A stretch of 61,071 nucleotides of DNA, counting the filler, from Dugesia japonica (Eukaryota), in the NCBI GenBank assembly GCA_001938525.1. It is 5 parts of 5 records of this genome, joined end to end, with 100 filler letters (N's around TTAATTAATTAA, not from the genome) between each part and the next. Parts side by side here need not be neighbours in the genome. Positions count along the whole stretch, not along the records: positions 34,108 to 51,679 come from MQRL01628809.1; 4 more parts are not named here. One strand, 5' to 3'. This document shows positions 3,546-48,400 of the stretch, in pieces; the stretch's first letter is position 1, and each line of letters starts with the position of its first letter. The notes below the pieces were generated by a model, which saw only the letters and a list, made by a program, of their open reading frames with translations, searched no databases and was not told the DNA's origin. The position numbers and the translations under genes are program-made.

Positions 3546-5039
3546 TCACCGTCGCCATGCCAACGGCTGGCCCCCAACTGTTCTCGATTCCTCCTTTCTA
3601 TCTACTGTACTTGTATGTTTTTCATTGTTATTTCTATTTATTTCCTTGTATATACGTTTTGGCGATTTTTCTCCACGTTATTCTTACTCACCATATATTT
3701 TCTATCGAATAAATGTATTTTGCTTCGAGGTTTTTTATGTTATTTTTTGTGGACGCTTTCTCTCAATTGTTTTGATTTCTATTCTTCTATACATTGTTCT
3801 TCTTCGTGTTAATATCTTCTAGGAGTAGATACTCTGAAGTGGACACAAATTTGACAACAACTCGATTATTGTGACATCTACTTTAAGACATTTGAGACTA
3901 TGCGGTATCCCGTCTTTTTACTTCATTCTTTACGGCTGCTGTTGAATATTATAAAAATAGTCGATCATTATTATCTTATTACCCTTATTTTCTTTTGTGA
4001 TCTGGTTGTCAATTCGAGAATCCTGGGAGAGTGTTTGAACTGTTACGATTAATACTCCTTCGTAGGTGATTATGTCTGTTAGTTTTTATTTTTTAATTAA
4101 TTCTATTTTCTCCTTGAATATTAGTTCATTTTATTTTCTCAGCGATATTTTTCATTAATTCTTTTCTCTTTTTGGATAATACACTATTTTTATTAATTAT
4201 TTTCATTATTAGTTATTACTTTCATTCATTTTGAGCAAAGGTTTTATTATTACTTATTTTCTTTGATAAATTATTTCTTTAAGTGGTAGTTTATTTTTAT
4301 TTATTTCTCTTATTTTTCTGATTATAGTTTGGTAGTAAATTTCCTTGAACATTTGCTTCTTGATTTGCTAATTAAATATTTACACAAAATGTACTTTCAC
4401 ACCAGATTTCCGGAAAAACTTCCGTAAAAAAAGAAAAATCATTAATATTACTTTATTTAAACAAAAATTAAATTCCCGATTGATTATATAATAAATGATG
4501 TAATTATTTTTATCGCCCTCACCATGAAAAATTACTGGATCCATCGATGCATAAAGTAAATGAATATTTCAAGCATAGTACATCGTATAATCTAAGTAAA
4601 CATACTTAATAAACTAAAAAACATTTAATAGTCTAAATAAAACTAATATAATACACTTATAAAGCTAATAAAATGTATCCACTAATCTTATCATAATAAT
4701 AACTTTAAAACTAAAAAATTTAACAACTGTTGATATTTAATATTTTTCGTTTTTAAATATAAATTTTTAAATTTGTTTTTAAAAAAAAAGTTCTCCAAAC
4801 TCATCTAACAATGGTTTTAATATTCAGCAGTATAAGTTCACTTATATCATTTATTACAGTAATTATCTTGTCATTCGATAGATACAAGTTTCAAGTAAGC
4901 TCATCAAGCTATGATACTTAAAGAGTATAAGACGAGAAATAATTAATAACAACTTACCTCTCAATTTTATTCCATAACCTGATTTATAAATTATAAATAT
5001 ACATTAAATATACTGTAAACGAATTAAAATTTAATTTGA

Positions 5040-28020: not shown

Positions 28021-31000
28021 ATGTCTACAATTTTATGCATTTCTGAAATCGAAGAACCTATTATATTTCAAACAAGTTTAACAGTAAGTGTAAAACAACA
28101 ATATAATATGTATTGTGTTTTGGTTAAAGATTATTTTATCTTATTTAAAAAGCCATCTGATATAATATCCTTCAAAAGACTTCCTATTACTAATAAAACG
28201 AATATAGAATTGGATAATTCTCAAAATAGTTTATCAATTTCTATAGGATCAAACAAATATACTTTTATCAGTACTGATATTGCATTGATTGAAAATTTGT
28301 TTGATGAAATTACATGTCTTATCAATAATTACATAAGTCCAAAACCATTAATTGATTATGAATATGCTGAAGTGAAAATCGATCAGATTGGATCATCTAG
28401 TGTTTATATTTTAATGGGCCGTGAAGATTATCATTTGTTTATCTATGAGAATCTCGATGAACACCAAAACAATATCGTTTCACATATTATCAATTGTAAA
28501 TTCTATTCTATCGAAAATGATTCAACTCATTCTATCGTGAAATCTTTGAAATTAATAGGTAAAAATCAAACATTTAAAATCAATTTTAAAGACGACACAA
28601 TCGTTGCCGATTGGAAAAGTTTATTTTCAAAATCATTAAATTCAGCTTTTAATGATGACGACTTTAAAATATTAACCGATATTTACGATAATGAATCGAA
28701 CAGGAGTTGTGCAGATTGTGGTAGTCCAAATCCAGAATGGGTTTCGATTAATTTGTTCGTAATTGTCTGTATAAATTGCGCTGGAATCCATAGATCACTC
28801 GGTACATCGGTTTCTCGAATTCAAAGTGCAATTATCGACAAACGAATTTGGGAAAATTCGAATCTAGTAGAAATCATGAAAGAAATCGGAAATGAGAAAT
28901 TGAATTCATTTTGGTGTAGAAATAAACCGAAATCAATTGATAATAAAAACAGTATCAATTCGATTTTATCGGATAATACGATATTCATTAAAGAGAAATA
29001 TCTGATGAAAAAATATATCGATCATGAATTCATCGATAATTCTGACGAAGAATTAAAAGAAAAATTGAAATTATCAGTTGGAACAAACGATCTGTTTTTA
29101 ACAATGCGATTATGGAACTCGATAAATTTCGATTATAACTCGGATTTCGTTGAGAAATTGTTGGAAATATCGAGAAATTCTCAACAAAATCTACAACAAG
29201 AATTTCTATCTGTACAACCGTTGAATAAATCGATTTTAAACACGCATAATTCGATTGTAATCAGTGAAAATGTATTGCAAATCGCTATTAATAATAATAA
29301 TAATTCAGAAAAACTCAATAATTTATTTCTGGTGTCCTTATTGAATAATTGTATATCGATTAAAGTCGAAAATTGCTCTGTAACCCCTATTGAATTAATA
29401 AACGTTTGTTGTATTTATTTTGATAGTATCGATTTAGTTTGGTATGATTATTTCAATAATGAAAATCTAATTATATCCGTTAATCCAGCGAGTAATTTCC
29501 ATAGAATTATCGGTAAAATCTCACTCAATAATTACCAGCAGATCGATGTAGATCGATTTGCATTTTTCAGCCAATCAAAACCGGTTTTAAAAAACTTGAA
29601 ATTTGATTTACTGAAATTATTGATTCCTAATGATAATAAAATAATCAATATTAACAATGATGAATTGACTTTATTTATCAATGTAGACGTGAGAAAAAAT
29701 TTCGAACGTTTCTCGAAATGTAAATGTTTCGTAACAGATCATGAAATTATTTTCTTGTCGCCGTTTTCTATGTTGTATGATTTGAAAAAATCGGAAAAAT
29801 GTGTTTTAATCGATGATAAGAAATCCATTCTGATAAAATTTAAAGTCGATGAACTCGAATTGATTACAACTGGGGTTGAAAATCAGAAAATCATTTATAA
29901 TTGTCTGGAAAAGGGAACGAAATCCAGTGAATTATTGAAGGATCCAATTGATAAAATGATTTTCTTTATCAGTTCTCGGGGTTTAAAATCAGAAGGAATT
30001 TTCCGAATTGGTGGAGCAATTAAAAAAGTAGATGCGCTTTTTAAAACTATAGATAATAAATCCACCAGTTTTACTATTGATCCTAACGTTTACAATGTTA
30101 ATGATGTCGCATCTTGTTTGAAGAAATATTTCCGATCACTTGATGAACCGATAATTAGTTGCGATTTATTTGACAAATTTAAAAGAGCTTCAATCGAACC
30201 AAATGAAAATGAGAAACTTCTTCTTTATAAAGAAGGATTATCACATTTACCACGTGATAATTATTTAGTTTTCCGTAAATTACTCGAACTGTTCTTCATG
30301 ATTCAAATGCCGATTAACCGTAATCGAATGGATAGTTCGAGTTTATCGATTTCCGTTTCTTCGTCTTTCATTTCTTTCGATAATTCCAACATACAAATTA
30401 ATAGTAATATAATGCGAGATCTCATTGAGAATTTTTTCTTTTTGTTTGACTATTCGAAAACCGAATCGGAAATATTGAGAAAATTCGTTGAAGGTCCAGA
30501 CAATGTTGATCAGAATATCATCAGAAACTTTTACGTTCATCCGAAATTGAAAAACAACTTAACGATTAATAAATTCGATAATGGAAAACTGAACTTTCTT
30601 GAACGGGAAATCAATTACATCATCATTAATATCAATATAAACAAATGTGTTGTTGTTAAACACGTTTATGAATTGTTTTTCAATGATTGTGGAATGCAGT
30701 TATGGCATTTTCTAACGAAACGATCGGGGTTTTCGTTGAAAACTATTAAAAGATTGATTTATTTGAATGATGGTATAACTCATTCGATTCTTTATCCGAG
30801 AACTATATTGAACTATGATAGTTATTTTGTTTTTCTAATAAACCCTCAAAATATAAATTCTACTGTGAGAAGATTGTTTCAGTGTGAAGTGAAATTGAAA
30901 TCAGCGGAAAAATATCAAGATTTCACTTTAATGATGAGTTTTCCGACTTCTCTGCAATTTTTCGATGATAAAAGTCATTCTCTTGACCCAGTTTATAATT

Positions 31001-31155
31001 TTCTACTGTCAGATATTATCGTTTACAGATTCCATACGAAAAGTATTAGTAAAATTTTTATTCTGTTCGGTACCAACGGTTTTATAAAGGTTAAATTTGA
31101 TAATTTCGACCTCTTAAAAGAATTTTTATGTATTTATGATCAATTCAGAAATTAA
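28021..31155 (+). CDS. ARAP: ARAP (centaurin-delta)-like protein with PH-like regions, ArfGAP and RhoGAP
   Basis: ArfGAP zinc finger CADCGSPNPEWVSINLFVIVCINCAGIHRSLG. RhoGAP GLKSEGIFRIGG...DVASCLKKYFRSLDEP. 1044-aa open frame with an in-frame TAA just upstream of the ATG. Confidence 0.9.
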   Translation: MSTILCISEIEEPIIFQTSLTVSVKQQYNMYCVLVKDYFILFKKPSDIISFKRLPITNKTNIELDNSQNSLSISIGSNKYTFISTDIALIENLFDEITCLINNYISPKPLIDYEYAEVKIDQIGSSSVYILMGREDYHLFIYENLDEHQNNIVSHIINCKFYSIENDSTHSIVKSLKLIGKNQTFKINFKDDTIVADWKSLFSKSLNSAFNDDDFKILTDIYDNESNRSCADCGSPNPEWVSINLFVIVCINCAGIHRSLGTSVSRIQSAIIDKRIWENSNLVEIMKEIGNEKLNSFWCRNKPKSIDNKNSINSILSDNTIFIKEKYLMKKYIDHEFIDNSDEELKEKLKLSVGTNDLFLTMRLWNSINFDYNSDFVEKLLEISRNSQQNLQQEFLSVQPLNKSILNTHNSIVISENVLQIAINNNNNSEKLNNLFLVSLLNNCISIKVENCSVTPIELINVCCIYFDSIDLVWYDYFNNENLIISVNPASNFHRIIGKISLNNYQQIDVDRFAFFSQSKPVLKNLKFDLLKLLIPNDNKIININNDELTLFINVDVRKNFERFSKCKCFVTDHEIIFLSPFSMLYDLKKSEKCVLIDDKKSILIKFKVDELELITTGVENQKIIYNCLEKGTKSSELLKDPIDKMIFFISSRGLKSEGIFRIGGAIKKVDALFKTIDNKSTSFTIDPNVYNVNDVASCLKKYFRSLDEPIISCDLFDKFKRASIEPNENEKLLLYKEGLSHLPRDNYLVFRKLLELFFMIQMPINRNRMDSSSLSISVSSSFISFDNSNIQINSNIMRDLIENFFFLFDYSKTESEILRKFVEGPDNVDQNIIRNFYVHPKLKNNLTINKFDNGKLNFLEREINYIIINININKCVVVKHVYELFFNDCGMQLWHFLTKRSGFSLKTIKRLIYLNDGITHSILYPRTILNYDSYFVFLINPQNINSTVRRLFQCEVKLKSAEKYQDFTLMMSFPTSLQFFDDKSHSLDPVYNFLLSDIIVYRFHTKSISKIFILFGTNGFIKVKFDNFDLLKEFLCIYDQFRN

Positions 31156-31839
31156 TTTTAGAATTTTTATTTATTTATTTATTTATATATTGCAAATGTG
31201 TTTTATATATGAAGCTGATATTATTTTGATTTTCATTTAACAAATAAATTTGTGTGGTTTTCTAGTTGGCTTTTGTTTAATGGATTTGTATTGATTTGCA
31301 AGCGTGTAAATATCATTAGTGTGATCAGTATCAATTAATTAATGCATATTTTATACTATTCAGACTATCAAATGGATTTCACTAAATCTCATTCCACAAC
31401 AAAATTGAAAATCAATAATATTTACACACGCGATAGTTAGTTGATAAAGTAAGTTTCAAATTTGGTTTTTTCCAAAAATATTTGGTTTCGTTATTGCTAA
31501 TCGTAATGAATATTAGGTTCAATTAATACATAATTTTCTTTTGTTTTCCTTTGATTTGGATTCATTATTCGAATTTCTACAAAATTTAGCATTGTTTATT
31601 GTTTCAAAGTTATTTTATTTGCACACTACCTATATGGATAAAAGTTTTGTTAAGTGTCGATTTTTATTCATGATTTTAATTTGTTGATTAAGGGTATCCA
31701 TCTTAAGTTCGAATTCTTTTAGTAACTCTGTATTTTTATAGTGTATGGATGCTTCGTTTTATTTTGGTTCAGAGAGCTAGAGTGTACAAAGCTATCAGAG
31801 TAAAAAAAATTGGAATACGCGGAGCCAACGAGTAAAGTT

Positions 31840-32105
31840 TTCGATGAATTCAAGGTAGCAAACATGACAATTTCGGTCTTTTCCCCCTATTAGAGAAGGA
31901 AGTTCAATTTAGATAATAATGTCAGTTCTGATACAATCAGAGCGGTGCAATCACAAATAGATAAAGACGGAAGACAAAGAGTAATTGCCATGAAAAGGCG
32001 TATTATGTCGTTCAGAAAGAGCTAATGTCGGTTTATAATAAGTTTGCATACATTTTAAGCGCTGCCTATATTAGAATAGATGTAAGCTCACAACGGACCA
32101 TTTAT
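31840..32105 (+). mobile_element. Gypsy RT-connection/RNase H fragment
   Basis: SQIDKDGRQRVIA, QKELMSV, HFKRCLY, LTTDH. Confidence 0.65.
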
Positions 32106-32281
32106 GTAGAAATTAATTCCTTCCATATTATTTTTGTCATTTCTGTTTGTAATTTGGTTTTTAGTTCTGTTAGTTTTATTTTGATTTTTTAATTATTTCT
32201 TCTTACTGCTACCACAGCTCTTTATTTGTAGTACTGTTGGGCTGGAACGCCAAATTTTTATTTTTATTTTACAAAGGAAAA

Positions 32282-34007
32282 AATGGTAGCAAAGATAGCA
32301 AAAAAGTTGAAGAAGAAGAGACTTTGCGGAAAAGAGAGATTATACAAGAAATTAAGTAGATCGAGTAAAGAAAAACAGAGATCGAGTTGATGCAGTTGGA
32401 AATTACGCGGGAGTTACAAATCTAAATTATCAAAAACCGGTAAATTATACAGTGAATAGACATGTGGAGCAAAGAAAGGAAAAACAAAAAATGGAATGTT
32501 GGTAATTTCATAAGATCGGTCATACTAAAGCAAATTGTCCGACAAAAAAAGTAGTAGAGTGCTGGAGTTCTTATAAAACAGGACATATGAGTCGTGATTG
32601 TCCAAATAAAAATCCAATAAAATTTTTTGGTTGTGGAAAGGTTGGCCATATTAGAAGGTTATGTCAAGAAGTGAGGTGTAAACAATGTGGTAATGGTGGA
32701 CATAGAGCAGAAGAGTGCTACACAAATTTAAAAGNAAAAAGAACAAGTGAGAAATTTATGACTGCACAAATATCAAGAAACCAATATAATCGAGTACATG
32801 CTATTGAAGATGAAGATGTCCGAACAAACGATGGATATGAGTAAGTATATGAAAGTGATTCCAAAAGACAGTGCTCCAGCAGTAGAGAAGTTAGTTGGAG
32901 CCATCCATTGTTAAATGAAGTTTGTAATTATCCTCAAGTGGTCGAAAAGTGAGATGATATCGGAAAAATTACAGAAAATGTATACAGGTTTTAAAAGAGG
33001 AAAGGTTTTGCGGATGATAGAAAAGTAGAATGGGTTTGAAAAGTTGATGCAGAAAAGAAAACAAATACTTCTTACCATAAATTGCAAGGCAGACCAAGTG
33101 TTAAGATATCGATTCAAGGAAATAAAGTAGAATGTCTATTAGATACAGGGGCTCGAATTAACGTGATGAGTCAGAGTTTTTTTAATAAATTACAAAAAGT
33201 AAATTTAGAAATGATTGATGAAAATTGCGTTGTGCAAATAATAGTACACATCTAACAAAACACAAAATAATCACAAGTGGTNAACCAATCAATGTAAAAC
33301 CGTATAGACAACCAATGAATTTGAAATCTAAAATTGAAGAAGCTATCCAAAACCTTCTCGAAAATAATATTATCTGGAAATGCAACTCTACATGGAAAAA
33401 CCCACTGATCTGTGTTTGGAAAAAGGAAAAAAAAGACAAAAGAATATGTTTGGATTTCAGACAATTGAATGCAGTAACGAAAAGACAAGCCTTTCCTATG
33501 CCTAATATCGATGAAATGCTGGACAAGTTAGATGGAGCCAAATATTTAGTTCAATAGATTTTGGAAAAGCATACTATCAGGTAGAGTTCGAAGAAGAATA
33601 TCAAGAAAAAATGACGTTTTCAACGAAGCATGGACAATATTATTTTAATATAATGCCATTTGGAATCGCAGCGGCACCAGAGACATTTNNNNNNNNNATG
33701 ACAAATGTGGTAGGCGGAATCACTGGAGCTCTGGTGTATCTTGATGACATCCTGATATTTACCCACAATAAAGATAAACACTATGAAGTAATTGAAAGAG
33801 TGTTGATCGAAATAATGAAGGCTGGTCTAAGAATCAATACAGAAAAGTGTCCGTTTCTTCAAAACGAAATCACCTTGCTCGGACACATAATTAGCAGAGA
33901 TGGTGTTAGAACTGATCCGTCTTAAATAGAAGCTAAGAACATTTGGCAAACCTAACTGTGTGAAGAAGTTACGAAGTTTCTTGGGAATTTATAATTATTA
34001 CAGGAAG
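32282..34007 (+). mobile_element. Gypsy gag (multiple CCHC knuckles), protease and RT, pseudogenised
   Basis: GCGKVGHIRRLC, CKQCGNGGHRAEEC, CLLDTG, ICLDFRQLN, MPFG, VYLDDIL. Runs into the contig end. Confidence 0.95.
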
Positions 34008-34051
34008 NNNNNNNNNNNNNNNNNNNNNNNNNNNNNNNNNNNNNNNNNNNN

Positions 34052-34063
34052 TTAATTAATTAA
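34052..34063. other. Artificial contig linker
   Basis: TTAATTAATTAA embedded in Ns. Confidence 0.95.
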
Positions 34064-34479
34064 NNNNNNNNNNNNNNNNNNNNNNNNNNNNNNNNNNNNN
34101 NNNNNNNTATATATATATATATATAATCTAAATATATAATTAAATTTACTTTTTCAAATATTCTCTTCCTTGAGGATTAACCTGTTTTCTTATTGTAATT
34201 CATTTTTATCTAAATAAAATAACAATAAATCTAAAATAAATTAATAAAGAAAAACTTACAAAATTGTTGATAATTGTTATTGTTTTAAAATTTAGAAATT
34301 AAATTGTGACAAAAATTAATCAATAATACTTTTTTGTACACTAGTTTATAAAGAAACCAATAAGATTGTGAGAAAATTTTAAAATACCACAACGCAACAT
34401 ATTGTTGCATTAACAAATTATTAGTCATGAAAATAATAAAGACTAATTAAAAATAAAAAAAATAAAGACATTTTTAATT

Positions 34480-34890
34480 TTATACATTTATTAATATATA
34501 ACATACATTTTCAACTACAATTTTGATATTTATTTACATGAATTTCACTCATAATGTTGATTTTTTAAACATAACAGACAATGTTGACCACAGGTCTTTG
34601 TAAACGGATTTTGAATTCTAATTTTATTATATACAATTGGTTTTGATATTCTTGAGAGATGCGAGACCAACATTTGCGGATAATAAAAACCAATCGGATC
34701 AAAACTAATATTTTCATAGGTTTATGGTTAACTGCTATCCAATGTTCTCCATCGAGATTTGATGTGTGTGTATTGACGATTATGGCTTTATTAACTGGAA
34801 AGTATGGAAGCTTGTCTAGTGGATACACTCTTAACCATGTTGATCCAAGCACTTTTTTCCGATTTGATTAATCTGAATAGAACTATTAAA
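34480..34890 (-). pseudogene. Adenain-like (adenovirus-type) cysteine protease
   Basis: IIVNTH...GEHWIAV (His), FDPIG (Asp), IQNPFTKTCGQHC (Gln, Cys), read across frameshifts. Confidence 0.88.
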
Positions 34891-34983
34891 GTAAAAAATC
34901 AATTATATAATTAGGTATACTTTATAACATATATTGATTATAACATATATTGTTTACACTTATGCCTTTTAATCCAAGTTCGG

Positions 34984-36181
34984 TTAAACCAATACCGTTC
35001 TATTGACGTTAATTTGAATTTCCTTTTCAAATACTCTATTTATTACTACATATGCTGGTACGGACAAAGTTTTTTTCAAACTTTATATCCAATCATAAAT
35101 TACCTTGTTGCGTTAATTGACTTTGAGTTATATCGAAATCCGGAGCCAATACAAATGTAAAGAATGGATACTTGCTTTTTAATTCTTCAAATGTGATTCC
35201 GCAATCCAAATTCTTATTAAAGTATCCCATGTTTCTAACTATAGATTAGATCTATGTCATACTATAATCTTCCTTTTCAAAATCTTGGATATATATCTCT
35301 CGATAATCCGACATGTTTAAATGTTGAAATTGAGCTTTTATAGCCATCATTTAATTGTTCTTCACTTTGAAATGTGATTAAAATAAAGTTAGGCAAACGA
35401 CGATCACCAAATATTTGCTTCTTATGAAATGAAGAACTATTTTTATTAATAGCAAAAGCAACTATTTCCTTGTTTCTTATTGGGTACACTGCATTTTGCT
35501 TATTTAATTCAATTTAATGACCAGTCAATACAAAGGGATCAACTCATACGCGTTTAGCCATTAATTTTGCATCCATATTTTTATATCTAGGTTCATCAGT
35601 TCAAGATTCCAAACATATTTCAAAAGATTCTCTTTTCATTCGAATTTGAAAATTAACTCCAGGAATAAGATATTTTGGTTGATCCATAAATTCGAGTTGT
35701 ATTGATTCCCACAGAGACAATGATTTCTTTATACTCTTTTTTCTATTTGCTTCTGTTCCATATTCAATCTAATAATAAAGATTTTACTATCACCATTATA
35801 ATTCAGTATAGTTTCAATGAATACTTTTTGAATATAAGTTTCATTTCCACCTTCAATTTTGTAAGTATTAAATATCAGAATTACATCTTTTAACAAGGTG
35901 TGAAACATATAGTAGTTAGGCACCACATCTAACTTCTCATCCAATTCCTTTCCAGCCTTTTCAACTGCTTTTACTTGTATAGACAACAGAGTATCATTCA
36001 AATCTACATATTTAGTTTGTGAACCATTTATAATAAAAACCACATCATTTTTTGGATCATATATTAAATTCATTGGAAACACATCTTCAAACGATCCATA
36101 CTCAATAACCTCTTGGAGAGATGGTCGGTCGAAAATACGCAAGTCAGTTTTTCGCAAATCATTAATCGAATATAGTTCCAT
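34984..36181 (-). pseudogene. Major capsid protein (double jelly-roll), frameshifted
   Basis: DLRIFDRPSLQEVIEYG, YVDLNDTLLSIQVK, FMDQPKYLIPGVNFQIRMKR, YPIRNKEI, RLPNFILITF and FTFVLAPD follow the Polinton MCP motif order over about 400 codons. Confidence 0.82.
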
Positions 36182-36596
36182 GTCCTCTCATTCGTTTGTT
36201 TATACCTGATGATCTTGATTTCTTACATTTTTTATTATGTTTTGTAGGTTGTTTTGTTATAGTATTAGTTATACTATTGGGTATCTTGTTAGCTATGCAT
36301 GTTGGCAGCATGTTTGCTACCTTCGGTATCATATTAGTTACGCCAGACGGTAATGAAGACATTACATTTCGAAGCTTAGCTAATGCATTTGATTTTAGGG
36401 ATGATAGTATGTTTCCGTTATTTGCCAGCACATCCTGAGCAGTTTTCCCACCAAATAAACCAAAACGTTTAACAATCGGCAAAGCATATCTTTCAATTGT
36501 TTGCAACCAACCAGATCCATACTGTTTTCCAATAAAGTATGGCAATTCACCACCAACTTGACCGGTACTATACAATGCTACCATTTCAGAATTCAT
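36162..36596 (-). CDS. Conserved Polinton/adintovirus glycine-motif protein between minor and major capsid genes (putative core or membrane-active virion protein)
   Basis: Y...QVGGELPYFIGKQYGSGWLQTIERYALP, basic tail, MRGHG..IF end. Frame still open. Confidence 0.7.
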   Translation of the reverse strand: MNSEMVALYSTGQVGGELPYFIGKQYGSGWLQTIERYALPIVKRFGLFGGKTAQDVLANNGNILSSLKSNALAKLRNVMSSLPSGVTNMIPKVANMLPTCIANKIPNSITNTITKQPTKHNKKCKKSRSSGINKRMRGHGTIFD

Positions 36597-37637
36597 TTAT
36601 TTTTCGAAAATGTAATGTTAAATGAGTTTTTGTATCTTTTGGAAACAAAATTAATTGTTCATTATCATCAGTTATAATTATTTCTATATTGTTTATACGT
36701 GATGTAGAAATAGGCAAATACATGGGATTATCAACAATTATTTGAACCACTTTATCATTTTCTTCGTTATTCATCCAAACTGTTTTCAAAAGAGGAACAT
36801 TTACATCACCTACAATTATCGGTTCGACAATACTACTACATATCAACATTTAATTATGACACTTTAGTAGTTTAGGTTTCTTAATACTCTTGAGTATTTT
36901 ACCTGGTACATTGATGTTAGTTCGAATATATTGCGGTGTTTCTAATCCAAGAGTTTTTCTCAAGGTTGAATGGAATGCAATACTTCTAATTTTATCTCCT
37001 ATTTCTAATTCCATTAACTAATCAGGCTTTAATGTGAATGATTTAAATAGTTTTGAACAGTTTTTATTAATATATTCATTTAATTGATTTAAATCTTTTA
37101 TGAATAATTCATTCTAAAATTGAAATGTATGATCACTTACAGTAAAATAATAGAGTCATCGTTTTTAAATGGTTGCATGTTAATAGAAAATTGATGGTCA
37201 AAATAATGGTTAATTGTTTTATTTAAATTAAATCTCTTTACATTTTCCTCACTATCAATTGACAAAACACTCTCTGAACTAACCGTACTATTATTATTAT
37301 AAGATGTAATCGTATTTCAATTCGAAAATATATGGGTTTCAACACCACTAAATTTTGGCTGTGGTCCTACATAATATAAACTGATTGACTTGTTTTTATT
37401 GTCAATAGAAACAATTATTGCTCTTGTTATAAGATGAAATTCTTGATATTGAATCGTGACGTCACTATAATACGGAAAATGAAAATATACATATGTGAAA
37501 TCCATCATGGCTACTTCCCAATTACCTTCCAAGTAAATCGGATTTTGAAACTCAACATTAAACTTACTAGCTGTATTGTTCGGATAAATAAGAGGACTAC
37601 TATTACTTGGTAAAAGTGTAAAGAAATTGTTGTTTAT
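36586..37637 (-). pseudogene. Minor capsid (penton-like) protein
   Basis: N-terminal FFTLLPSNSS..YPNNTASKFNVEFQNPIYLEGNWEVAM and C-terminal IVEPIIVGDVNVPLLKTV...PMYLPI...LTLHFRK. Confidence 0.85.
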
Positions 37638-37644
37638 TGTTGAT

Positions 37645-38666
37645 TTATTGCGATGCAGATATCCAACTAGGATTTTATAACCATGCCACTTTACATAATA
37701 TTGTTTATTCTGTTTCGTACCCTTTGACCTTATAACATTTTCAATTTTGAATACTGATGGCAGATGAATTACTTGTAGCTCCTATTCATAAAACCTTCCC
37801 TGCATAATATTATTCTCATAATCTTTAATGACATACATGACAGGATTTTGTTTGGTATTGATTTTAAATATTTGAAACACCTCATCACTCTCATTAGTAT
37901 TGAAATTCTTGATGAATTAAGAAGTCAATATCTTTAAAATTCTAACGTGGTCACCAACTTTAAGTTTTGGTTTTTTAATTGCTTTCTTATGTTGTCGTGA
38001 GAGCCACAGTTTTAATTGATTATTTGAACTTACATCAACTGGTCTTTCTCCATTTAAACCCATATGACTTGAATTATTGTAACTATAATTTAGTTTCGGC
38101 AATTATTCATGTTTTATTACCAATATACACAAAATATTTCTTCAAAACATCTCTCAATGTACGATTAAATCTCTCGACATGTGCGGCTTTGTACTGACTA
38201 AATACAGTATAATGATTTATTTTTAAATGCGATGGTAGATTTTTGACTTAAGAAATATAAAATATCTTACCCAAATCTGTTTATAAATTATACGGGTGTC
38301 CATTTTTAAACATTAATTTTATTGCAGCTTCAATATCGGGTGCGGATCTTGATTTGACTGGAACTGTTCTTGCAAATCTGTTTAATGCATCAATACAAGT
38401 CAAAATATATTTGTTTCCTTTATTGATTTTTGAGTATGGAATCATTTCCATTAAATCTATTTGCCATAAATCGTCAATACCATATGTTTTATATGCTCTC
38501 GTTGGAAATCTTTTCAGCATTGGCTTGCTCAGACTGTACGCTAACTGGTTTGATAACCACTTATTTGTTTTGCTTTTCGATTTTGGTGCGGTTTTCATCA
38601 ATTTTCTATGCCACGAAAACTTGCTTTGCTTTTTAGATCCGTCCATATCGTCTGCAGTTTGCCCAT
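37645..38666 (-). pseudogene. Retroviral-type (rve) integrase with C-terminal chromodomain, copy B
   Basis: MGKLQTIWTD, WLSNQLAYSLSKP, WQIDL, YILTCID, AAHVERFNRTL, LKVGDHVRI, GRFYE, KQYYVKWHGY..SWI. Confidence 0.9.
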
Positions 38667-38732
38667 TACAACAATTTGATGAAAATTTGAAATTAAAATT
38701 AGGTAGTGATTGTAAAGCACCCATTGTTTTTT

Positions 38733-39055
38733 TAAAATGAGTCTAGCCTAATGCGGCTAATGAAATTGGTAATAAAGCAGCAATAAAACCACCATCTTGT
38801 TTATCTATTACGTTTCTCATCAATCTCTTGTTCATAGTATTTACAAGCGATACTAACAATTTTTTATATTTTTTCAAGACTTATTCTCTATTTTTGCTTA
38901 CATTTACATTACCATTTACAATATTTACAAAAAAGTTCAATCAAATCATCAATAACATAGGTTGGAAATTATTGCAAAATTTTCATTCTTTTTTGTTTTG
39001 AAGATTTGAGAAATGCTGCAAAAAATGGAATTATTCTTTGTAAATAAATTACATA
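38733..39055 (-). pseudogene. Small Polinton protein with QxGGF and amphipathic C-terminus, copy B
   Basis: VNIVNGNVNVS...LKKYKKLL...KQDGGFIAALLPISLAALG. Confidence 0.7.
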
Positions 39056-39226
39056 CTTGTTGATTGTTTATTAAACATATTTTTGAACTGATTTTTGATT
39101 TTCTTTGTCAGGTTCTTGTTTTACTTTTGAATGCTGCTTATTATCCGAACGTTATTTAGCTTTTGGATTGGTTTGCTCTTGTTTAACTATAACATTTGTA
39201 AATTTCGTCGTTTTGTAACAAAATAA

Positions 39227-39376
39227 TTACTTCGTTTGTTTATACACTATGACGCGATTAGAGTTAAACATATAAGTTCGCACTCTCAAATAATGTGGAC
39301 ATTGTTGTGTAAAGTCTAAGAAGAGGTATCCATGCGGCTTTACTGTTGCATCCTTGAAAGCGTTCAATAGAAATTA
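39227..39376 (-). pseudogene. Packaging ATPase C-terminal fragment, copy B
   Basis: FLLNAFKDATVKPHGYLFLDFTQQCP..LRVRT aligns with copy A FLIESF*DATETPHGNLFLDFTQQFP..YRVRT. Confidence 0.85.
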
Positions 39377-40152
39377 CTATTTAAATTCTTGATAAATGGT
39401 GAAGCTGATATCTTTGAGATTTTCACATGATCACCAACTTTATACTTTAGTTTTTTATTTGCTTTTGAATGTTTACGCGATAATCATAACTTTAATTGAT
39501 TGTTTGTACTTACATCAACCGGTCTTGCTCCATTTAATCCTTTATGACCAGAATGATTATAACTATGAATAAGTTTCGGTAAAACATTTATCCAAGTCTT
39601 ATTACCAACATGTACAAAGTACTTTTTCAATGCATCTCTCAATGTGCGATTAAATCTCTCTACATATGCAGCTTTATACTGCGAGAATACACTATAATAG
39701 TTTATGGATAGATGATTTATAAGTTGTTTCACCTTAGAATTGTAAACTTCCTTTCCCAAATCTGTTTGAAAATTATCTGGATGTCCATTTTTAAACATTG
39801 ACTTGATTACCGGTTCCACATCATTAGCAGATTTTGATTTAACAAGAACAGCTCTTGCAAATCTACTGAATACATCAATATATGTCAAAATATACTTGCA
39901 TCCTTTATTAATGTTTGAATATGGAATCATCTCTATTAGACCCATTTGCCATAAATCATCAATACCATATGTTTTATATGCTCTTGTTGGAAATCTTTTC
40001 AACATCGGCTTGTTCAGGCTGTACGATAGTTGTCACAATAACTACTTTTTTGTATTTCTTTTCATTTTTTGAGCTGCTTTCATCAACTTGTCTACGCCTC
40101 GAACACCTGCTGGGTTTTTTGGATCCGTCCATATTGTCTTTAGTTTCCCCAT
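39377..40152 (-). pseudogene. rve integrase, copy A, 3'-truncated
   Basis: MGKLKTIWTDPKNPAGVRGVDKL, YIDVFSRFA, QTDLGKE, ERFNRTL, KVGDHVKI, then breaks into ATPase sequence. Confidence 0.9.
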
Positions 40153-40210
40153 TACAACAGTTCGATGCCAATTTTAAGTCAAAATTAGATAATGATTGCA
40201 ATTCGCCCAT
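39974..40210 (-). CDS. 78-aa ORF overprinted on the integrase 5' end (MGxxxS and CC motifs)
   Basis: MGELQSLSNFDLKLASNCCNG...EQADVEKISNKSI*. Homologous frame in copy B is MGALQSLPNFNFKFSSNCCNG...EQANAEKISNESI*. Confidence 0.6.
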   Translation of the reverse strand: MGELQSLSNFDLKLASNCCNGETKDNMDGSKKPSRCSRRRQVDESSSKNEKKYKKVVIVTTIVQPEQADVEKISNKSI

Positions 40211-40251
40211 TGTTTATTAAAATATTGATCAAAAGCTTCAATTGTTTATTT

Positions 40252-40557
40252 GAAATGAGTTAAACCTAAAGCTGCTAATGCAATTGGTAGTAATGTTGCT
40301 ATAAATTCACCACCTTGATTAGTTTGTATTACTTTCCTCATCAATCTCCTATTTTTAGTATTTACAAGCGATTATGTTTTTTTATGTTTTTTCAATGTTT
40401 TCTTTTAAACTTCGCTCAAATTTACATTACAGTGTAAAATTTATGATTTTAAATCATCCATAACATATAGTGGAAACAATTCCAAAATTCTCATTCTCAT
40501 TGATTTTGATGATTTAATCAAAGCAGTAAAAAACGGAATACTTCTTTCTAATTTCAT
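40252..40557 (-). pseudogene. Small QxGG/amphipathic protein, copy A
   Basis: MKLERSIPFFTALIKS...NQGGEFIATLLPIALAALGL. Confidence 0.7.
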
Positions 40558-40594
40558 TTTTTTATTTCAAAGCAAAGACATACCAGTTAATTGT

Positions 40595-40938
40595 TTATAA
40601 TGATATCCATTTTCTATTCATAAATTTCAGTTTCTTTCTAGTACTTTTTGCAAGTTTTTTAAACTTATTCAATACATTATTCTTATTTGCATATGGTTTC
40701 TTATGTGATATCCATCTTCCATCTGTCATTTGCAGTTTCTTTTCATCACTTTTTGAAAGTTTTTTAAACTTATTCAACTGTATTTTATTATTTGCATTTG
40801 TTTTCTTATGAGATTGTTTTTGTGAGACTTTTTCTTATAAGATCGATTTGTTTTTTTCTTCAAAACTAACCTTTTCCTTTGTTCAACAACATCACCATCA
40901 GTAACTGAATCAACTACAATTTTCTTAAACTTTGCCAT
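40595..40938 (-). pseudogene. Lysine-rich small protein with an internal repeat of about 35 aa
   Basis: MAKFKKIVVDSV..., then a repeated LNKFKKL.KS..KKL...WIS unit. Confidence 0.5.
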
Positions 40939-40958
40939 TTTATATAATATTATGAAAA

Positions 40959-41611
40959 TTACCTATTTTGTTTATATACTGTGATACCATTAGGGTTGAA
41001 TATATCTGTTCTCACCCTATAATCATCTGGAAATTGTTGTGTAAAGTCGAGAAATAGATTTCCATGTGGTGTTTCTGTCGCATCTTAAAATGATTCAATA
41101 AGAAATTGTCTGTTATTTAGATATGCTTGTCTTGCTAAAAAATCAACAACAGTTTGATCTCTAGGATTTTTGAATAGAACCAAATATTGCAGGTTTAAAT
41201 TGCGTGTTCTATGACTACCTCCTTGATAAAATAGATTTTGTGTAATAAATATAACAGTCACATTACTATGTCTCAATATCTTTGTGAATAAATTATTGAA
41301 ATCTTTTTCTTTATTTGCCTCCTGATACAGATCATCAACAANNNNNNNNNNNNNNNNNNNNNNNNNNNNNNNNNNNNNNNNNNNNNNNNNNTACTCCAAT
41401 TAGAATCAAAACCATTTATGATTTTCATTTTAATATTACAAAATTCAGATTTAGTCAGACCATGCACCTCATCTGAACCTCTATGCTAGTATATGTTTTT
41501 AAATTTAGACTTGAATAACTTTGATTTCAATAATTGACATACAAACAAAGTTTTCCCGCTACCACTAAGTCCAACAATTTGATAGACTGCATCATTTCTT
41601 AATCTCTCCAT
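40959..41611 (-). pseudogene. A32/FtsK-like genome-packaging ATPase, copy A
   Basis: Walker A GLSGSGKT, Walker B VDDL, RHSNVTVIFITQN, RNLNLQYLVLFKNPRD. Confidence 0.92.
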
Positions 41612-41899
41612 CTTGTTTTTCTTTAGTTTACTCATAATTTAGTATATTGTTTATAATTAAAAGTTAAAGAAACATTAAAAATCACGTGACTATGAATTTT
41701 TATTAATAAATAAATAGGTGTGTAACTCAGATGCAACACACATACACTGTAAATCACGCGCTTATGAATTTTAGACTCCCCTCATACCATGTAAAAAATA
41801 AAGACTCCCTCGTCCCTTGCAAAATATTAAGACTACCCCATCTGTTACATAAAAAAATAATTTAATTAAATTTAATTTAATTTAATTTATTTATATTAA

Positions 41900-42065
41900 A
41901 AAGATTTCCCTGCCTTGCAATAAAAAATTTCCAACCAAAATATTGTTTTTAAATTTCCCGCCAAAAATATATTTTTGAATTTCCCGCCAAAAATTTTTTT
42001 AAAAATTTCCCGCCAAAAACGTTTTTGAAAATATTAAGACTCTTCTCTTCCCCGCTCAAAAATCT
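41900..42065. promoter_or_regulatory. Array of TTTCCCGCCAAAA (E2F-consensus-like) motifs at 26-bp spacing
   Basis: Perfect copies start at 41954, 41980 and 42006. Degenerate copies at about 41904, 41928 and 42048. Confidence 0.55.
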
Positions 42066-42769
42066 TACAAAACAACACTTCCCTGATCAAAATACCGAAA
42101 AAATAACCAAAAATACAACAAATACATAAAAATAACATTACTTTCATTAAATTCATCAAATTAAGCAATATACAGCATTTTAAACCAAATTAAATATTTC
42201 AAAACATTATGACGCATAACCAACTGACAGAAAAATTTCAAATAAATATCATAAAATCCAATAATTAATTCTCTTTCCACTCATACCAACCTCCACCTCA
42301 CGAAAATATTTTTAGCACACTTATACCACTTACAAAATAAACCAATCAAATAGTAACCCTTAAAATAAAAAATCAAAGCACATTCGACAACCAACATCTT
42401 CACTATCACATTACCTCTCCAACAAGCCATCAACCAACAAATTCCATCAACAACATAAAAACCTACAAGCCCCACAAAAACCACCCACGATAACTCATAC
42501 GAATGTGCCCGTGTGCCACTACCCTTGTACCGACAACCATCCATCCAAACTCATAAGTCCTTTAGACAATATATAGACCAAATCTTTGTCCAACAACAAA
42601 TAAATCTTNNNNNNNNNNNNNNNNNNNNNNNNNNNNNNNNNNNNNNNNNNNNNNNNNNNNNNNNNNNNNNNNNNNNNNNNNNNNNNNNNNNNNNNTTTTT
42701 AAAAACCACCTTAGCAACCCAAACACACACAAAATTTAAAATTTAAAAATACACACACACTTTCAGGAT

Positions 42770-42960
42770 TAAAAAAAACTGATCAGATCAAAAAAAAATT
42801 TGATCCGATCAAAAAATTTATGATCCCAAAAATCTTAGAAAAAAATCGAGCACAAAAATCATGGCTAAAAAGCGCAGCTTAAGCGTAATGTGTTTCCGAG
42901 CCCCCCTCTGGGAATGGGGGCGATTTAGAAATTGTGCCCATGTGCCACTATCTACCTACT
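42770..42960 (-). repeat. Putative Polinton terminal (TIR) region
   Basis: 5'-AGTAGGTAGATAGTG end, GC-rich subterminal block and GATC-A(n) repeats. Partner TIR is not in the window. Confidence 0.6.
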
Positions 42961-43333
42961 CTCCGTATTAGCCACAAAATGAGTTTTGTTCATTAATCAA
43001 GGAGTATACAAATGTCAACGTTGATTCAGTTCTAGACGAATATTCATCTATATCAATGGCATGTCCCTATAAATGTAATAGTTGCATTCGACGAAATATC
43101 CAGAAAGTTTTACATATTCATATTAACAATCAAAATGAAAAACACTAGAATAATGTTTGTAATAAATGTTTTATAAATGATTTTCTTTTATTTTAACTTT
43201 TTCAATAATCAAANAAATAATCAAAGAAATAAAATATTAACATTTATTAATTATAACAATTACAACAGTTTTAATCACGTTTTATTCAAGTTTGTTAAGT
43301 TTTAATTATCCAAATTGGTGTAGATTCAATATT

Positions 43334-43790
43334 TCATTTCTTGATTCTTTGAATTTCGATTGTAAGCATCCACCTGTCTTTATTTACATATCCTTCATCA
43401 TATGTGTTTTCCAGAACTTCTTTCGAATTACTAAATACATTGTCTTTGATTGGCATTGTTTGGTCCAATCTCAAAAGTACCGAATTTATAATTAATTTAT
43501 CCGACGAACTAATTTCTTTAATCATGTTATATGGACGTCTTTTTAACTTGACAGATTCCTAAATAAAAATTATTAATAGTAAATAATACTAAAAAATAAA
43601 TTACTTGAAATGTATACAGAATAGACTTCTTCAGTAAATTCATTTTATGTTGATGAAAATCAACAATTTTACCACAGTCAAGACTAATGTTCAATACGTT
43701 ATCAATTGTTAGTATTTGCTTTCCTTCCATTTTAAAATAATGAAATTTTTTTTTAAAAACTTTCTTGCTTATATACTTACTTGAACTCAT
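43334..43790 (-). CDS. Two-exon ORF of unknown function (possibly a pseudogene)
   Basis: A 46-nt GT-AG phase-0 intron at 43559-43604 joins ...ILYTFQ to ESVKLKRRPYNMIKEI... in frame. Confidence 0.5.
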
Positions 43791-44009
43791 TAAGTGAATT
43801 TCTTTGGTTGATTTTAACTAGTGTGCGTGGACGTATTTCACAATAACTGCATACTTTCCAATATCTGTACGATTTTAATTCGCTGATAATTCTTTAAATT
43901 TATAAGATTTACAAGTTCAAATCTTATTAATTTCTAAAATAACAGAAAAGAAAGAATCTGAAACAAATAATTACATTGAAAACAAAGATGTTGTATGTTA
44001 ACAAATTTA

Positions 44010-45270
44010 CTAGATATACCCCATAGAAATGCTGTTCATTGCATTTGCATATCCTTCACGATTCCTTTTATAAAAGTCCATTATGTAGGATAATGGCATT
44101 GAAAGAGTATTTGCAGTTTATAATGCCAACCTTCNACAGAGTTTGTTGTTCTGGCTATTCCTTCAGAAGCAATTTCATAATGATTCCAGCTTTCTATTGG
44201 AAAGAGCTCTGAACCATAATATTCAGTACATCCTGATCGCCTTCTGTCTTAAATATAAGTGTGTTTAAAATAGGCCAAAATCTCAGACATCTTATTGTAC
44301 AGCTAATATCATAAAAGCATTAATAACATCTGCTAAAGGAACCATAGCCTAAACAGATAAGCAGCGAATGGCTGTTCACAAACAGTCGATCCTTTTATAA
44401 TAGACTTTCATGCCAATTTCATTTAATTTCCGATTTACACTTTGCATTAGATGAAAATAGCAACCAATAACCTTTGCATTTAGAAAAGCTGCTCTAAAGG
44501 CACATTTTGCAGAAATCTCAAGTTGAGCAGTATTCTATATGTTGAAGCCAGTGGAATACTCTGTTTAATTGCTATTATAATGCGATCATAAACAGCAAGT
44601 ATTTTTGTTTGAATCAGACAGTAAATATCAGTAGGATCTATACCAGGAACAAGTTGAACATGTAAAGTATATTGTTGAAAAAATATAGAAAACACTACTT
44701 TAATCTGCCAACTATAGTTTAGCTCTTGCCAATCCATCCAATAGTTCGTCACTTCCCATTATCAAAGCCGATCGAATCCAGATCCTAAAATCATAAAAAA
44801 TCATATTTTGAAATTCTTCAGGTATATTGAATGTCATATCTTTTGGAGGTGTAAGAAGATATGTCAATACTGACTCCGACTGTATATTTTGGCGTTTTTG
44901 CTGCAAAGTTCGCTTAAGAGAATCCTTTTTTGGTAAAGCTAAAAGAACCTCTGATTAAAGTTTCATACTTACAGAACCTATCACTGCAATTGTTGTAGTT
45001 CATATTTCATCCATTTTGTCTTTCATTTTAGAAACTGATTGTTTGGCCAAAAAAGTATTCTTATTACCATCATAATCACAATCACCCAGTAATTTATCTT
45101 TTGCTATTGTCAAACGGGCTTGATGTTAGCAGATCTGATAACGCTTACAATGCCATTGAAAATTACCATTTGCATATTTCAGGTGCTTAATAAATTCATA
45201 TTGCTTATGCAAAACAGACACTTTCTACTTTTTAGTAGTGCGAAAACTAATTTTATTATCAGTTATTTTA
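44010..45270 (-). mobile_element. MULE (Mutator-like) transposase with FLYWCH-like N-terminus, pseudogenised
   Basis: FQWHCKR, LPKKDSLKRTLQ, KVVFSIFFQQYTLH, VIGCYFHLMQS, FPIESWN, RTTNSVEGWH. Confidence 0.88.
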
Positions 45271-45449
45271 GCCCTTTAAATACTTTAATAAGTATATTTA
45301 TAGCTAATTAAATATTACATAACTAACAAACGTGATTTAGTTTCAAGGATTAAATTAAATCACAGTGATTAATTAATAAATTAATAATGTGGATTGATGC
45401 TTATTTTGTTCTATTTTATCAGTGATTAGGTGTCGAGTGATTAAGTGTC

Positions 45450-48400
45450 ACCAAACCAATTAAATATTAATAATAATAAGCTTCCTAGAGACTATACGAT
45501 AATCTAAATAATAATGCATGTAATAACCCAATCATTAACTAGATTAAAGAATTACATCATTGCATCATTTAAAGATAACTATATTATTTAGTAAAATAAG
45601 TGTAAGTTAGTAGAATAATTATTTATATGTTTAGAAGTATGTTAGAAGTATGTTTCATTACCATAATATTTATTAAATGACAATCTAAAAAGGAGAAATA
45701 AATATATAAATAATTATGATTTGACCAATCACCATACCTCAATCAGCAAAAAAACATTGACCTACATATTGACCAACATACAAAATATTTGAACTCATAG
45801 TCAAATATAAGTTGTGCAACATGCAATTTTAATAATAATTTATAGTAAATATAAAATATCCTCACATTCCCATCTCTTTAAAAGCTCTTAACCACTCTAC
45901 ATTTTTGATAACTATTTTACCATTTTCAAATTTAATGTAATAACTCCTATCTTGTCTCTTTTTAATTATTATTTCTGGGCTTTCGTACATATCTTTGTCC
46001 TTATTAGCAGTGATATTTTTTACCAAAACGTTGTCTCCAATTTTAAAATGTATTTTTGTAATTCTATACATGCTAAGACTAATTTCATCTTGATCAATGA
46101 GATTTGTTATTCTTTTTCCATGTTTCTCTTCGACATTTTCATGAATATTCTATTCTTGTGAAATTTTCTTTCCAAAACCAATTTCTGCTGGACTCAATTT
46201 TAATGTACTTTGATATGAAGAAATTATCATAAATTCTACTTCTGGGAGTATATCTGTCCAATCTTTATTTGTTATATTTTGTAATGTTCTATGAATTACA
46301 GATCCTATAGTTCGAAATTGTCTTTCGATTTATCCATTACTAGAATGATGATACGGACTTGAAATGTTTAACTCTATTCCATGCTTTTCTGTCAATTTTC
46401 TAATCAAATTCGATTCAAATGATCTTACTTTATTACAATTANTAATTTTAGGTGCCCTGAATTTCAAAATCCACTNATTTTTTAATGTATTTGCTACAGT
46501 TTTTTCGGTTTGATCAATTACAGATGTTAATGAAATATACTTGCTAAATTGATTTATAATAGGTAATATATATTTTTTACTATTTCTAGCGGTTTTAAAC
46601 GGTCCACAGAAATCAATATGTATAATTTNNNNNNNNNNNNNNNNNNNNNNNNNNNNNNNNNNNNNNNNNNNNNNNNNNAATTTCAAATATATCTGTAGGC
46701 AATGTTTTAATAATGTCTTCTTTTGTTTTTGAAGTTACAGTTTTCTTTTTTTTGATGTTTTTCACAACTTCTTTTCATCCAGCATAACATAATAATTGAT
46801 TAGTATAATCAATGAATTTGATTCTCATTTCTTTTGAGATCCAGATTTTATTGTGAATTGTATAAACAATATTTTCAATCAATTTAAATTTATAATTTCT
46901 TTCAAATCTTAAGTTCTCTTTAATAACATCGATTTTTTAAAATCCTTCTTGCGATATACCACAATTATTTTGTAACATTAATGGCAATATTTTAGTTTTT
47001 AATTTTCCAGATTTCGGATCTTTATGTATAGTCTGGAATTGGACATACGTTTCACAATCCGTTCTTGAGAGAGCATCTGCATTAAGATGATCTTCACATT
47101 TTCTGTATTCCAATTTAATATCCAAACTGTTAAGATGGTTGATCCAAGTCTGAAATTGTGGTGTTATTGGTCTTTTAGTCTTCAGCATAAACTTTATTGT
47201 TTTATGATCAGTTCTTAATCGAATTATCTGTCCATACAAATAATGTTTCAAATGTTCTTTGAAATAAAAAATCGCCAAAAATTCTTTTCTGGTAATGTAA
47301 TAGCTCAGCTCGTGTTTACTCATGGTTTTAGATCCATAAGCAATATTTTTTTATCAATTTGACTTAAAACTGCACGTATTCTATCAAAGCTGGCATCAGT
47401 ATCCAATATAAATTTTTTAGAAAAATTCAGAAATGCTAAAACTGGAGCTTTCATTAGTTCAGCTTTCAAATCTCTTCAGTATATTTTTTTCTGGTTACTA
47501 CTACGTAGATTTTCTAAACATTTTGTCTACTTTGTGTAATCCTTTATAAATTTTCTATAATAATTTGCGAGGCATAAAAAACTACTCAACTTTTTACACA
47601 TTTTGGGGTTTTAAAATTAAAAATTGCTTCAATTTTTTTATTATCAGTATCAATTCCTTTTGAATTAATAATATGACCCAGAAATTTTATCTCGTTTTTC
47701 ATGAAATGACATTTAGATGGACTTATTTTAAAACCGGCTTCTTTTATACGTTTCAAAACCTTGTCAATTCTCTTATAGTGTTCTTTAATAGTTTCAGGAA
47801 AAAATTAAAATATCATTTAAGTAAGCCACTGCTTAATTACCATTTAAGGGACCTAAAACCTTATTCATCAATTTCTGAAAAATAGCAGTAGCAGCTGCAA
47901 TTCCAAAGAGCATTCTATTAAAATAATATTGTGCACCTTTTGTCGAAAATTCAATTTTATATTTTAAGTCATCTGTTAATTCTACTTGATAGTAAGCATT
48001 ACCAAAATCTATACTTGTAAAATATTTGGCTCCATATAAAATATCCATCATTTCCGCAGTGTTTGGAATAGGAAAAATTGGTCTTTCTGTCACTTCATTT
48101 AACAATCTATAATCTAATCAAAGTAGTATTTCATCATTGTCTCGTTTTTTTATGCAAACCTAAGGAGCATTCAAAGGGGAGTCACATTTATTTATAATTC
48201 CATTTATTTCTATTTCTTTAATATTTTGCTCAATCCTATCTATTAAATGATAAGGTTGACGCCTAGGATTAATTGCAAAATTGGTTTACTACTGTTTTTA
48301 TTTCATGTTTTACAATATTAGTTTTTTCAATATCCAATTTATGTTTCATTATAATACTTTCATATTTTTCTAAAATCGTCAATATCATTTTATCTTTAAT

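Follow-up and report, generated by a model that had tools for sequence, protein, structure and literature searches.

Small acylated proteins whose genes overlap a larger gene have been described in geminiviruses and in hepatitis E virus (HEV). The geminivirus C4/AC4 proteins are 7-11 kDa, disordered and poorly conserved in sequence, carry predicted myristoylation and palmitoylation sites, and overlap the replication gene in another frame (passages of PMC8496806). HEV ORF3 is a small protein, described as palmitoylated, that starts just before the larger capsid gene and overlaps it, is made from a bicistronic message by leaky scanning, and is needed for release of a non-enveloped-type capsid (passages of PMC8469867). 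In Mavericks and adintoviruses, the described accessory genes include PM, PZ and PW (PMC8097293, in part) as well as GasderminX, PLA2X, Cupiennin, Adintoc and Macc, among which membrane-active proteins have been proposed (PMC8502044 and PMC11071296, in part). According to the available text of PMC8097293, Maverick particles have not been observed to date. How such particles would cross animal cell membranes is a question for which the small gene described here offers a handle.

This gene lies in a 61,071-nt stretch of Dugesia japonica DNA (GCA_001938525.1; hereafter the window), in the same kind of element and the same cassette as the accessory genes above. It is unannotated and conserved, bears the signatures of a lipid anchor, and is coupled in a fixed manner to integrase within a particle-building cassette. 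It is a homologue of neither C4 nor ORF3. Unlike C4, with which it shares no homology (no Pfam family match), it overlaps integrase rather than Rep, belongs to an animal dsDNA element, begins upstream of the overlapped gene and has a conserved core outside the overlap. Like ORF3, it begins just before a larger gene and would be translated from a bicistronic message, but the overlapped gene is not that of the capsid.

In this AT-rich genome, a decayed Maverick/Polinton occupies the minus strand of the region. The gene order, all on the minus strand, is ATPase, small basic gene, GasderminX/PZ-like gene, small ORF, integrase, penton-, PW- and hexon-position genes, and protease. The A32/FtsK-type packaging ATPase (40968..41611, broken) has its 3' end repeated at 39373-39236; PF04665 matches above cut-off in the relative L009, and the window copy is 51-77% identical. 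The GasderminX/PZ-like gene (40246..40557, broken, with a pX-like hydrophobic C-terminus) was located by tblastn with the L009 protein, has a second copy at about 39025-38743, and was assigned because by eye it resembles entries for GasderminX in the available supplement of PMC11071296. Integrase is present as copy A (39370..40152), which is interrupted by stops, ends at about 39370 and matches rve (PF00665) above cut-off, and as a broken copy B (37674..38666) with a chromodomain, the Chromo match being weak in both the window and L009 (E about 0.002, below cut-off). Downstream lie a broken penton/minor-capsid-position gene (36601..37628), named from position and similarity to relatives and without a family match; an open PW/cupiennin-position gene of 144 aa (36162..36596), named from position; and a broken, putative major-capsid-position gene (34987..36151; about 405 aa in relatives), named from position and similarity. 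At the major-capsid position a conserved ORF of 403-413 aa stands at the expected place, with no Pfam, PHROG or PDB sequence match. The adenain-type protease (34554..34858, broken) is 49-57% identical to the L009 protease, and PF00770 (Adenain/Ulp1-type) matches above cut-off in L027.

Protein-primed PolB gave no match in the window; in the in-clade loci L011 and L023, C-terminal pieces carry polymerase-like motifs by eye, without a Pfam match. No terminal inverted repeats were evident in 31000-48000, where the copy is decayed and contains N gaps. Two copies of the block running from the ATPase tail to integrase meet near 39375 (39375-39236 and 40968-41107); they are about 73-78% identical and may have arisen by duplication or by recombination between family members. 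In two DNA sequencing runs, 3829 and 3198 contigs match 401 bases, so the family is large in the organism sequenced. On a smaller scale, 105 nt are tandemly duplicated in the region of the basic gene (40601-40810), and a 26-nt tandem repeat lies ahead of the ATPase (41926-42026). Among relatives, L041 encodes a 487-aa protease-integrase fusion protein (3557-5020) adjoining a 1290-aa PolB, and a tandem pair of penton-like genes occurs in L006 (4987-7058) and L001 (1432-3480).

The first-pass annotation had pointed to an ATG 58 nt upstream of the integrase ATG in both copies, and both pairs are indeed present (40210/40152 and 38724/38666). In copy A, this ATG opens an ORF of 78 aa (39974..40210) that covers integrase codons 1-59 in a different frame and stays open, while stops at 40044 and 40035 interrupt the integrase frame. 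Its conserved non-overlapping core (40153..40210) comprises Met1-Gly2, an alternating hydrophobic stretch and Cys18-Cys19, with M1, G2, C18 and C19 invariant. Copy B (38489..38724) is broken, as had been noted: near 38604, a gap of 1 nt against copy A fuses the small-ORF and integrase frames into a 147-aa ORF, and the small ORF's own frame has a single internal stop at 38563. The two copies were also said to end at equivalent positions. The copy B stop (38491-38489) does match that of copy A, but the end is not fixed among relatives, whose ORFs span 41-158 aa, and the stop common to both copies corresponds to conserved Tyr-Lys codons of integrase. We therefore rejected the common stop as evidence for a gene, since its position varies. 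Because the copies are about 78-80% identical across the small-ORF region, their agreement is weak evidence by itself and the window alone is compatible with chance; evidence beyond chance comes from relatives.

Metagenomic loci were retrieved with an integrase alignment only, the best 80 of 96 being kept, and the small ORF played no part in their choice. Fifty-seven loci were scored first and the remaining 23 later, with Gly2 forming part of the detection rule. Of the first 57, 41 carry an ORF in frame +2 to integrase that opens with ATG-Gly and contains CC or CxC, and L028 and L071 carry an ATG-Gly Cys-pair ORF among the other 23. Ten of the 80 have too little upstream DNA to score, including L033, in which the motif is visible and the start is not. 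Within the integrase clade of the window, the upstream ATG-Gly ORF with its Cys pair occurs in 42 of 43 scorable loci; outside that clade, such an ORF is found in 1 of 27 (L071). In an integrase tree of 37 rows, four short rows being omitted, a single branch (100/99) unites the window with the carriers; a few carriers were placed in the clade by identity only.

The two exceptional loci deserve separate mention. L037 (1280-1560) lies within the clade and has no small ORF between its GasderminX-like gene and integrase, an apparent loss; this element manages without the small gene. L071 (489-749) has an MG..CC ORF in the same layout and frame, beside an integrase that is 31% identical and without an ATAAAC box. 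Its ORF either shares an ancient origin with that of the main clade or arose by convergence, between which the tree comparison does not decide (p-AU 0.36).

Several observations argue against a chance ORF. Long ATG-Gly ORFs in 26 dereplicated loci fall 26 times in frame +2, once in +1 and once in frame 0. An MG ORF lies over the ATG of other genes in 2 of 80 control cases, none with a Cys pair. This frame bias, the distribution by clade, the controls and the selection described below led us to reject chance. A mere start-context effect of G at +4 behind Gly2 was likewise rejected, as only 5 of 109 other ORFs have Gly2, and so was a motif conserved purely as DNA at the Cys codons, as synonymous codons are used: all four Gly codons and both Cys codons occur in the small ORF. 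Profile searches added 53 and 45 proteins, overlapping in part with the metagenomic loci; IMG/VR scans returned no relatives. Gene callers often overlook the ORF and instead extend integrase upstream, giving Val/Ala-rich leaders. We conclude that the small ORF is almost certainly a real gene, and relatives thus bear out the proposal that a conserved gene carrying Gly2 and a Cys pair is hidden here.

The small proteins fall into two subgroups. The CC type, that of the window, has Met-Gly, often P-S-L-P, an alternating hydrophobic stretch, Cys-Cys at about 18-19 (13-19 across the type) and a charged tail. The sister CAC type has Met-Gly-Asn, a short helix, a linker and I-x-C-A-C-F (at 24-45, often with an extra Cys near the start), then an acidic or Ser-rich tail. 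From the small-ORF ATG to the integrase ATG there are 49-88 nt in the CC type and 106-277 nt in the CAC type. Profile alignment of the two is weak (probability 2.9%), and their homology is drawn from position, frame and tree. AlphaFold models are largely unfolded and of low confidence (pTM 0.21-0.22). Pfam, PHROG and PDB sequence searches found no match for the small protein, with no Pfam family for the window ORF, the L009 ORF, P0170 or P0219, and no conserved linear motif was found in the tail.

A strong beta-type periodicity precedes the Cys pair. With I-x-C-A-C-F conserved beyond the needs of an acylation site, and with element proteases as short as 105-133 aa, the hydrophobic strand and Cys pair might instead form a binding or metal/disulfide module, for example a protease cofactor strand such as adenovirus pVIc. 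We consider this very improbable: the motif is internal and lacks a cleavage site, no structure match was found, and by eye the four proteases inspected show no conserved Cys ahead of the catalytic one that could serve as a partner.

Selection acts on the protein. Across 13 disjoint pairs, the non-overlapping 5' part has pS 0.625 and pN 0.279, indicating purifying selection, and the non-overlapping core of copy A versus copy B has pS 0.57 and pN 0.14. Among the 40 best-supported of 190 differences, 8 fall in the non-overlapping part, of which 5 are at third positions and 4 are synonymous (by hand); none affects the ATG, Gly2 or Cys codons.

The view that the protein is overprinted on the integrase N-terminus needs to be divided. 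The conserved part, 16-50 codons, lies upstream of the integrase ATG, and it is the tail that forms a long, stop-free overprint, in the CC subgroup of the window. There the overlap is open for 37-128 codons and exceeds synonymous resampling in 12 of 13 loci, and in a fixed window third-position T occurs at 1 of 78 stop-creating sites versus 67 of 184 safe sites. Such avoidance of T was absent further downstream, in the CAC subgroup (Fisher p 0.08) and in outgroups; the CAC overlap is short and does not exceed chance length. These p values overstate independence, because the lineages are related. The sister subgroups thus display two stages of gene overlap, one short and of chance length, the other long and free of stops. 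A further test suggested at first pass, for reduced synonymous variation within the overlap, was negative (0.54 in the overlap versus 0.49-0.54 elsewhere, measured as third-position differences at identical integrase residues, near-saturated sites limiting power). The tail sequence therefore appears weakly constrained, though it is kept open.

The N-terminus carries putative signals of acylation. After dereplication, 87 of 98 homologues start with Met-Gly; the profiles behind this set were seeded with MG sequences, which biases it, and some upstream gene-caller starts were trimmed. Residue 3 is compatible with N-myristoyltransferase (NMT) in 85 of the 87 (background 57%), being Asn in 48, and residue 6 is an allowed one in 48 (background 38%). 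The proposed MGxxxS consensus survives in its glycine and only partly in its serine: Ser6 is present in only 39 of 87 and Pro6 in 13, and copy A has Glu3. The full PROSITE-type myristoylation pattern, which requires favourable residues at positions 3 and 6, matches 47 of 87 sequences. Copy B, P0001 and P0002 fit it; copy A fails through its Glu3. Eight of the 11 homologues lacking Gly2 have at least two Cys in their first 15 residues (one of the eight counts only because its start adjoins the CAC motif), versus 10 of the 87 with Gly2. N-terminal Cys clusters in the absence of Gly2 are seen in P0204, P0214, P0217, P0257, P0258, P0260 and P0261. This suggests that membrane anchoring, rather than Gly2 itself, is what is kept.

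On these sequence signals, Gly2 is predicted with good confidence to be myristoylated, and the Cys pair is a probable site of S-acylation. A precedent is flotillin-2, which is acylated at Gly2 and Cys4/19/20: its Gly2 is myristoylated, and the two adjacent cysteines at 19-20, set among hydrophobic residues, are palmitoylated (PMC7177705, in part), compared with Cys18-Cys19 in the small protein. The analogy is one of spacing only, as the small protein has neither homology to flotillin-2 nor an SPFH domain.

Upstream of the small ORF stands a likely promoter. In copy A, an ATAAAC box (40244..40249, minus strand) lies 39 nt before the small-ORF ATG, similar boxes preceding the ATPase, basic and GasderminX-like genes of the window by 43, 37 and 41 nt. 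In copy B the upstream box is missing, within a 32-nt gap. Among CC relatives, the box is found 14-37 nt upstream of the small ORF in 13 of 13, and among CAC relatives up to 59 nt upstream in 7 of 12, each against a background of 9.6%. The box stands before 43 of 72 other long ORFs; of 11 integrases, none has it. These data point to ATAAAC as a promoter for particle-building genes. In the window, boxes occur at 41654, 40975, 40598, 40249 and 36203 (minus strand), 30-45 nt before most element genes, and they likewise precede most genes in L004, L006, L008, L011, L025, L027, L036 and L056. Several relatives encode a TBP-like gene (PF00352 in L006, L011 and L036); the box and this protein could possibly make up an element-encoded promoter system. 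In 8 of 13 CAC loci, a box lies between the small-ORF ATG and the integrase core, mostly at Ser-Ile-Asn codons, so the CAC integrase may have its own promoter and the motif may be partly conserved as DNA.

Leaky scanning from the small ORF to integrase had been proposed as a means of regulation. It is plausible in the CC subgroup of the window only. There, 12 of 13 small-ORF starts have A at -3, with G at +4, a strong context that disfavours leaky scanning on any but a very short leader. Such a leader could let some ribosomes pass even a strong start, and if the box acts at the spacing of a TATA-like element, the small-ORF leader would be very short and some ribosomes could reach the integrase ATG. 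No ATG intervenes between the two starts in 13 of 13 CC loci, but this was rejected as evidence because it is not significant when the protein is held fixed (p 0.13). On balance, we lean towards a single message for both ORFs in the CC subgroup, on which most ribosomes would start at the small ORF and fewer would reach integrase. In four RNA runs, 90-2229 reads match, mostly under 90% alike, indicating related copies in poly(A) RNA; from these reads, neither a transcript start nor a splice joint at the start of integrase emerged, and the strand was not clear.

A related possibility is that the small ORF acts mainly as a regulatory overlapping upstream ORF that damps integrase translation, the peptide being secondary. 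The ORF is always first behind the box and always extends beyond the integrase ATG, and its tail sequence is weakly constrained, as such a role would allow. This reading is nonetheless highly unlikely. Already weakened by the protein-level selection, it leaves unexplained Gly2, Asn/Ala/Ser3, the hydrophobic strand, the Cys pair and a pN well below pS, and the ORF persists in the CAC loci even though a separate box may serve integrase there.

What the protein does is best considered from its cassette. We favour, by a modest degree of confidence, a conserved gene of one Maverick/Polinton lineage that encodes a predicted dually acylated, late membrane protein, most likely aiding particle assembly or release. 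A mostly disordered small protein would be expressed late, from the box, within the particle-building cassette; its predicted Gly2 myristate and Cys-pair palmitate would anchor it on the cytosolic face of producing-cell membranes; and the anchored protein might then help particles to assemble at, or leave through, membranes. The narrower claim, that the protein acts in release or in assembly linked to membranes and not in entry or host signalling, is held tentatively and falls short of probable. HEV ORF3 uses a PSAP late domain to engage release, and this domain is absent from the small protein. Across 125 sequences, the ESCRT late-domain motifs PT/SAP and PPxY occur in none and YPxL in one, and their absence leaves ESCRT-type budding unsupported. 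The most specific form of the proposal is doubtful: a dedicated lipid-anchored release factor of a whole animal Maverick lineage, with integrase dose tied to it through one late box-driven message, and with up to 128 integrase codons secondarily overprinted in one subgroup. Such a factor would be the first candidate for how non-enveloped Maverick particles get wrapped in host membrane and leave cells.

The same setting could house an internal virion protein for entry, that is, a myristoylated membrane-penetration peptide packed in the capsid, for which polyomavirus VP2, picornavirus VP4 and reovirus mu1N are models. The small ORF sits in the particle-building cassette behind the same ATAAAC box, and the N-terminal helix of the CAC types (residues 4-13) has a higher hydrophobic moment; CC types, however, lack the helix. 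An adenain-type cleavage motif is absent from 124 of the 125 sequences, and the Cys clusters that replace Gly2 would be more in keeping with an anchor in the producing cell than with a capsid switch that depends on myristate. Buck et al. (PMC11071296), in the text available, mention signals for myristoylation and put forward a class of membrane-active proteins of the capsid core, but the cassette already has two candidate entry proteins, GasderminX and cupiennin (PMC8502044, in part). We regard an entry peptide as unlikely.

The comparison with C4 raises another reading, a non-structural host modulator at membranes, in which a disordered acylated protein would bind signalling or defence proteins. 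Size, disorder, a fast-evolving tail, overlap with a replication-type gene and the Gly2/Cys signals all match C4 (passages of PMC8496806), and the distribution is patchy and limited to the lineage. The small ORF nevertheless has the box of particle-building genes, and its tail lacks a conserved linear motif; we consider a host modulator improbable.

The small ORF appears to represent an undescribed family. No description of a small MG-Cys ORF over the integrase start was found in the available portions of the Maverick and adintovirus literature (PMC8502044, PMC11071296, PMC8097293, PMC11161782, PMC11296320 and 10.1101/2025.04.19.649669), and motif searches of the accessible supplements of PMC8502044 and PMC11071296 (10.1101/2024.03.25.586562) gave no matching entry among the matches listed. 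Earlier annotation under an arbitrary name is possible in Repbase, GenBank adintovirus records and most subscription papers, which lay outside the search. Identity with Adintoc5, which precedes integrase in other lineages, was rejected, as that protein is by eye different and longer.

The element itself lies among other genomic features. An ArfGAP-RhoGAP host gene of 1044 uninterrupted aa occupies 28021-31155 on the plus strand. Pieces of decayed Ty3/gypsy-type retrotransposons flank the element at 32500-33925 (+), 45860-48100 (-) and 6657-7328 (+); these were called by eye, the 6657-7328 piece also matching Pfam RT_RNaseH and Integrase_H2C2.
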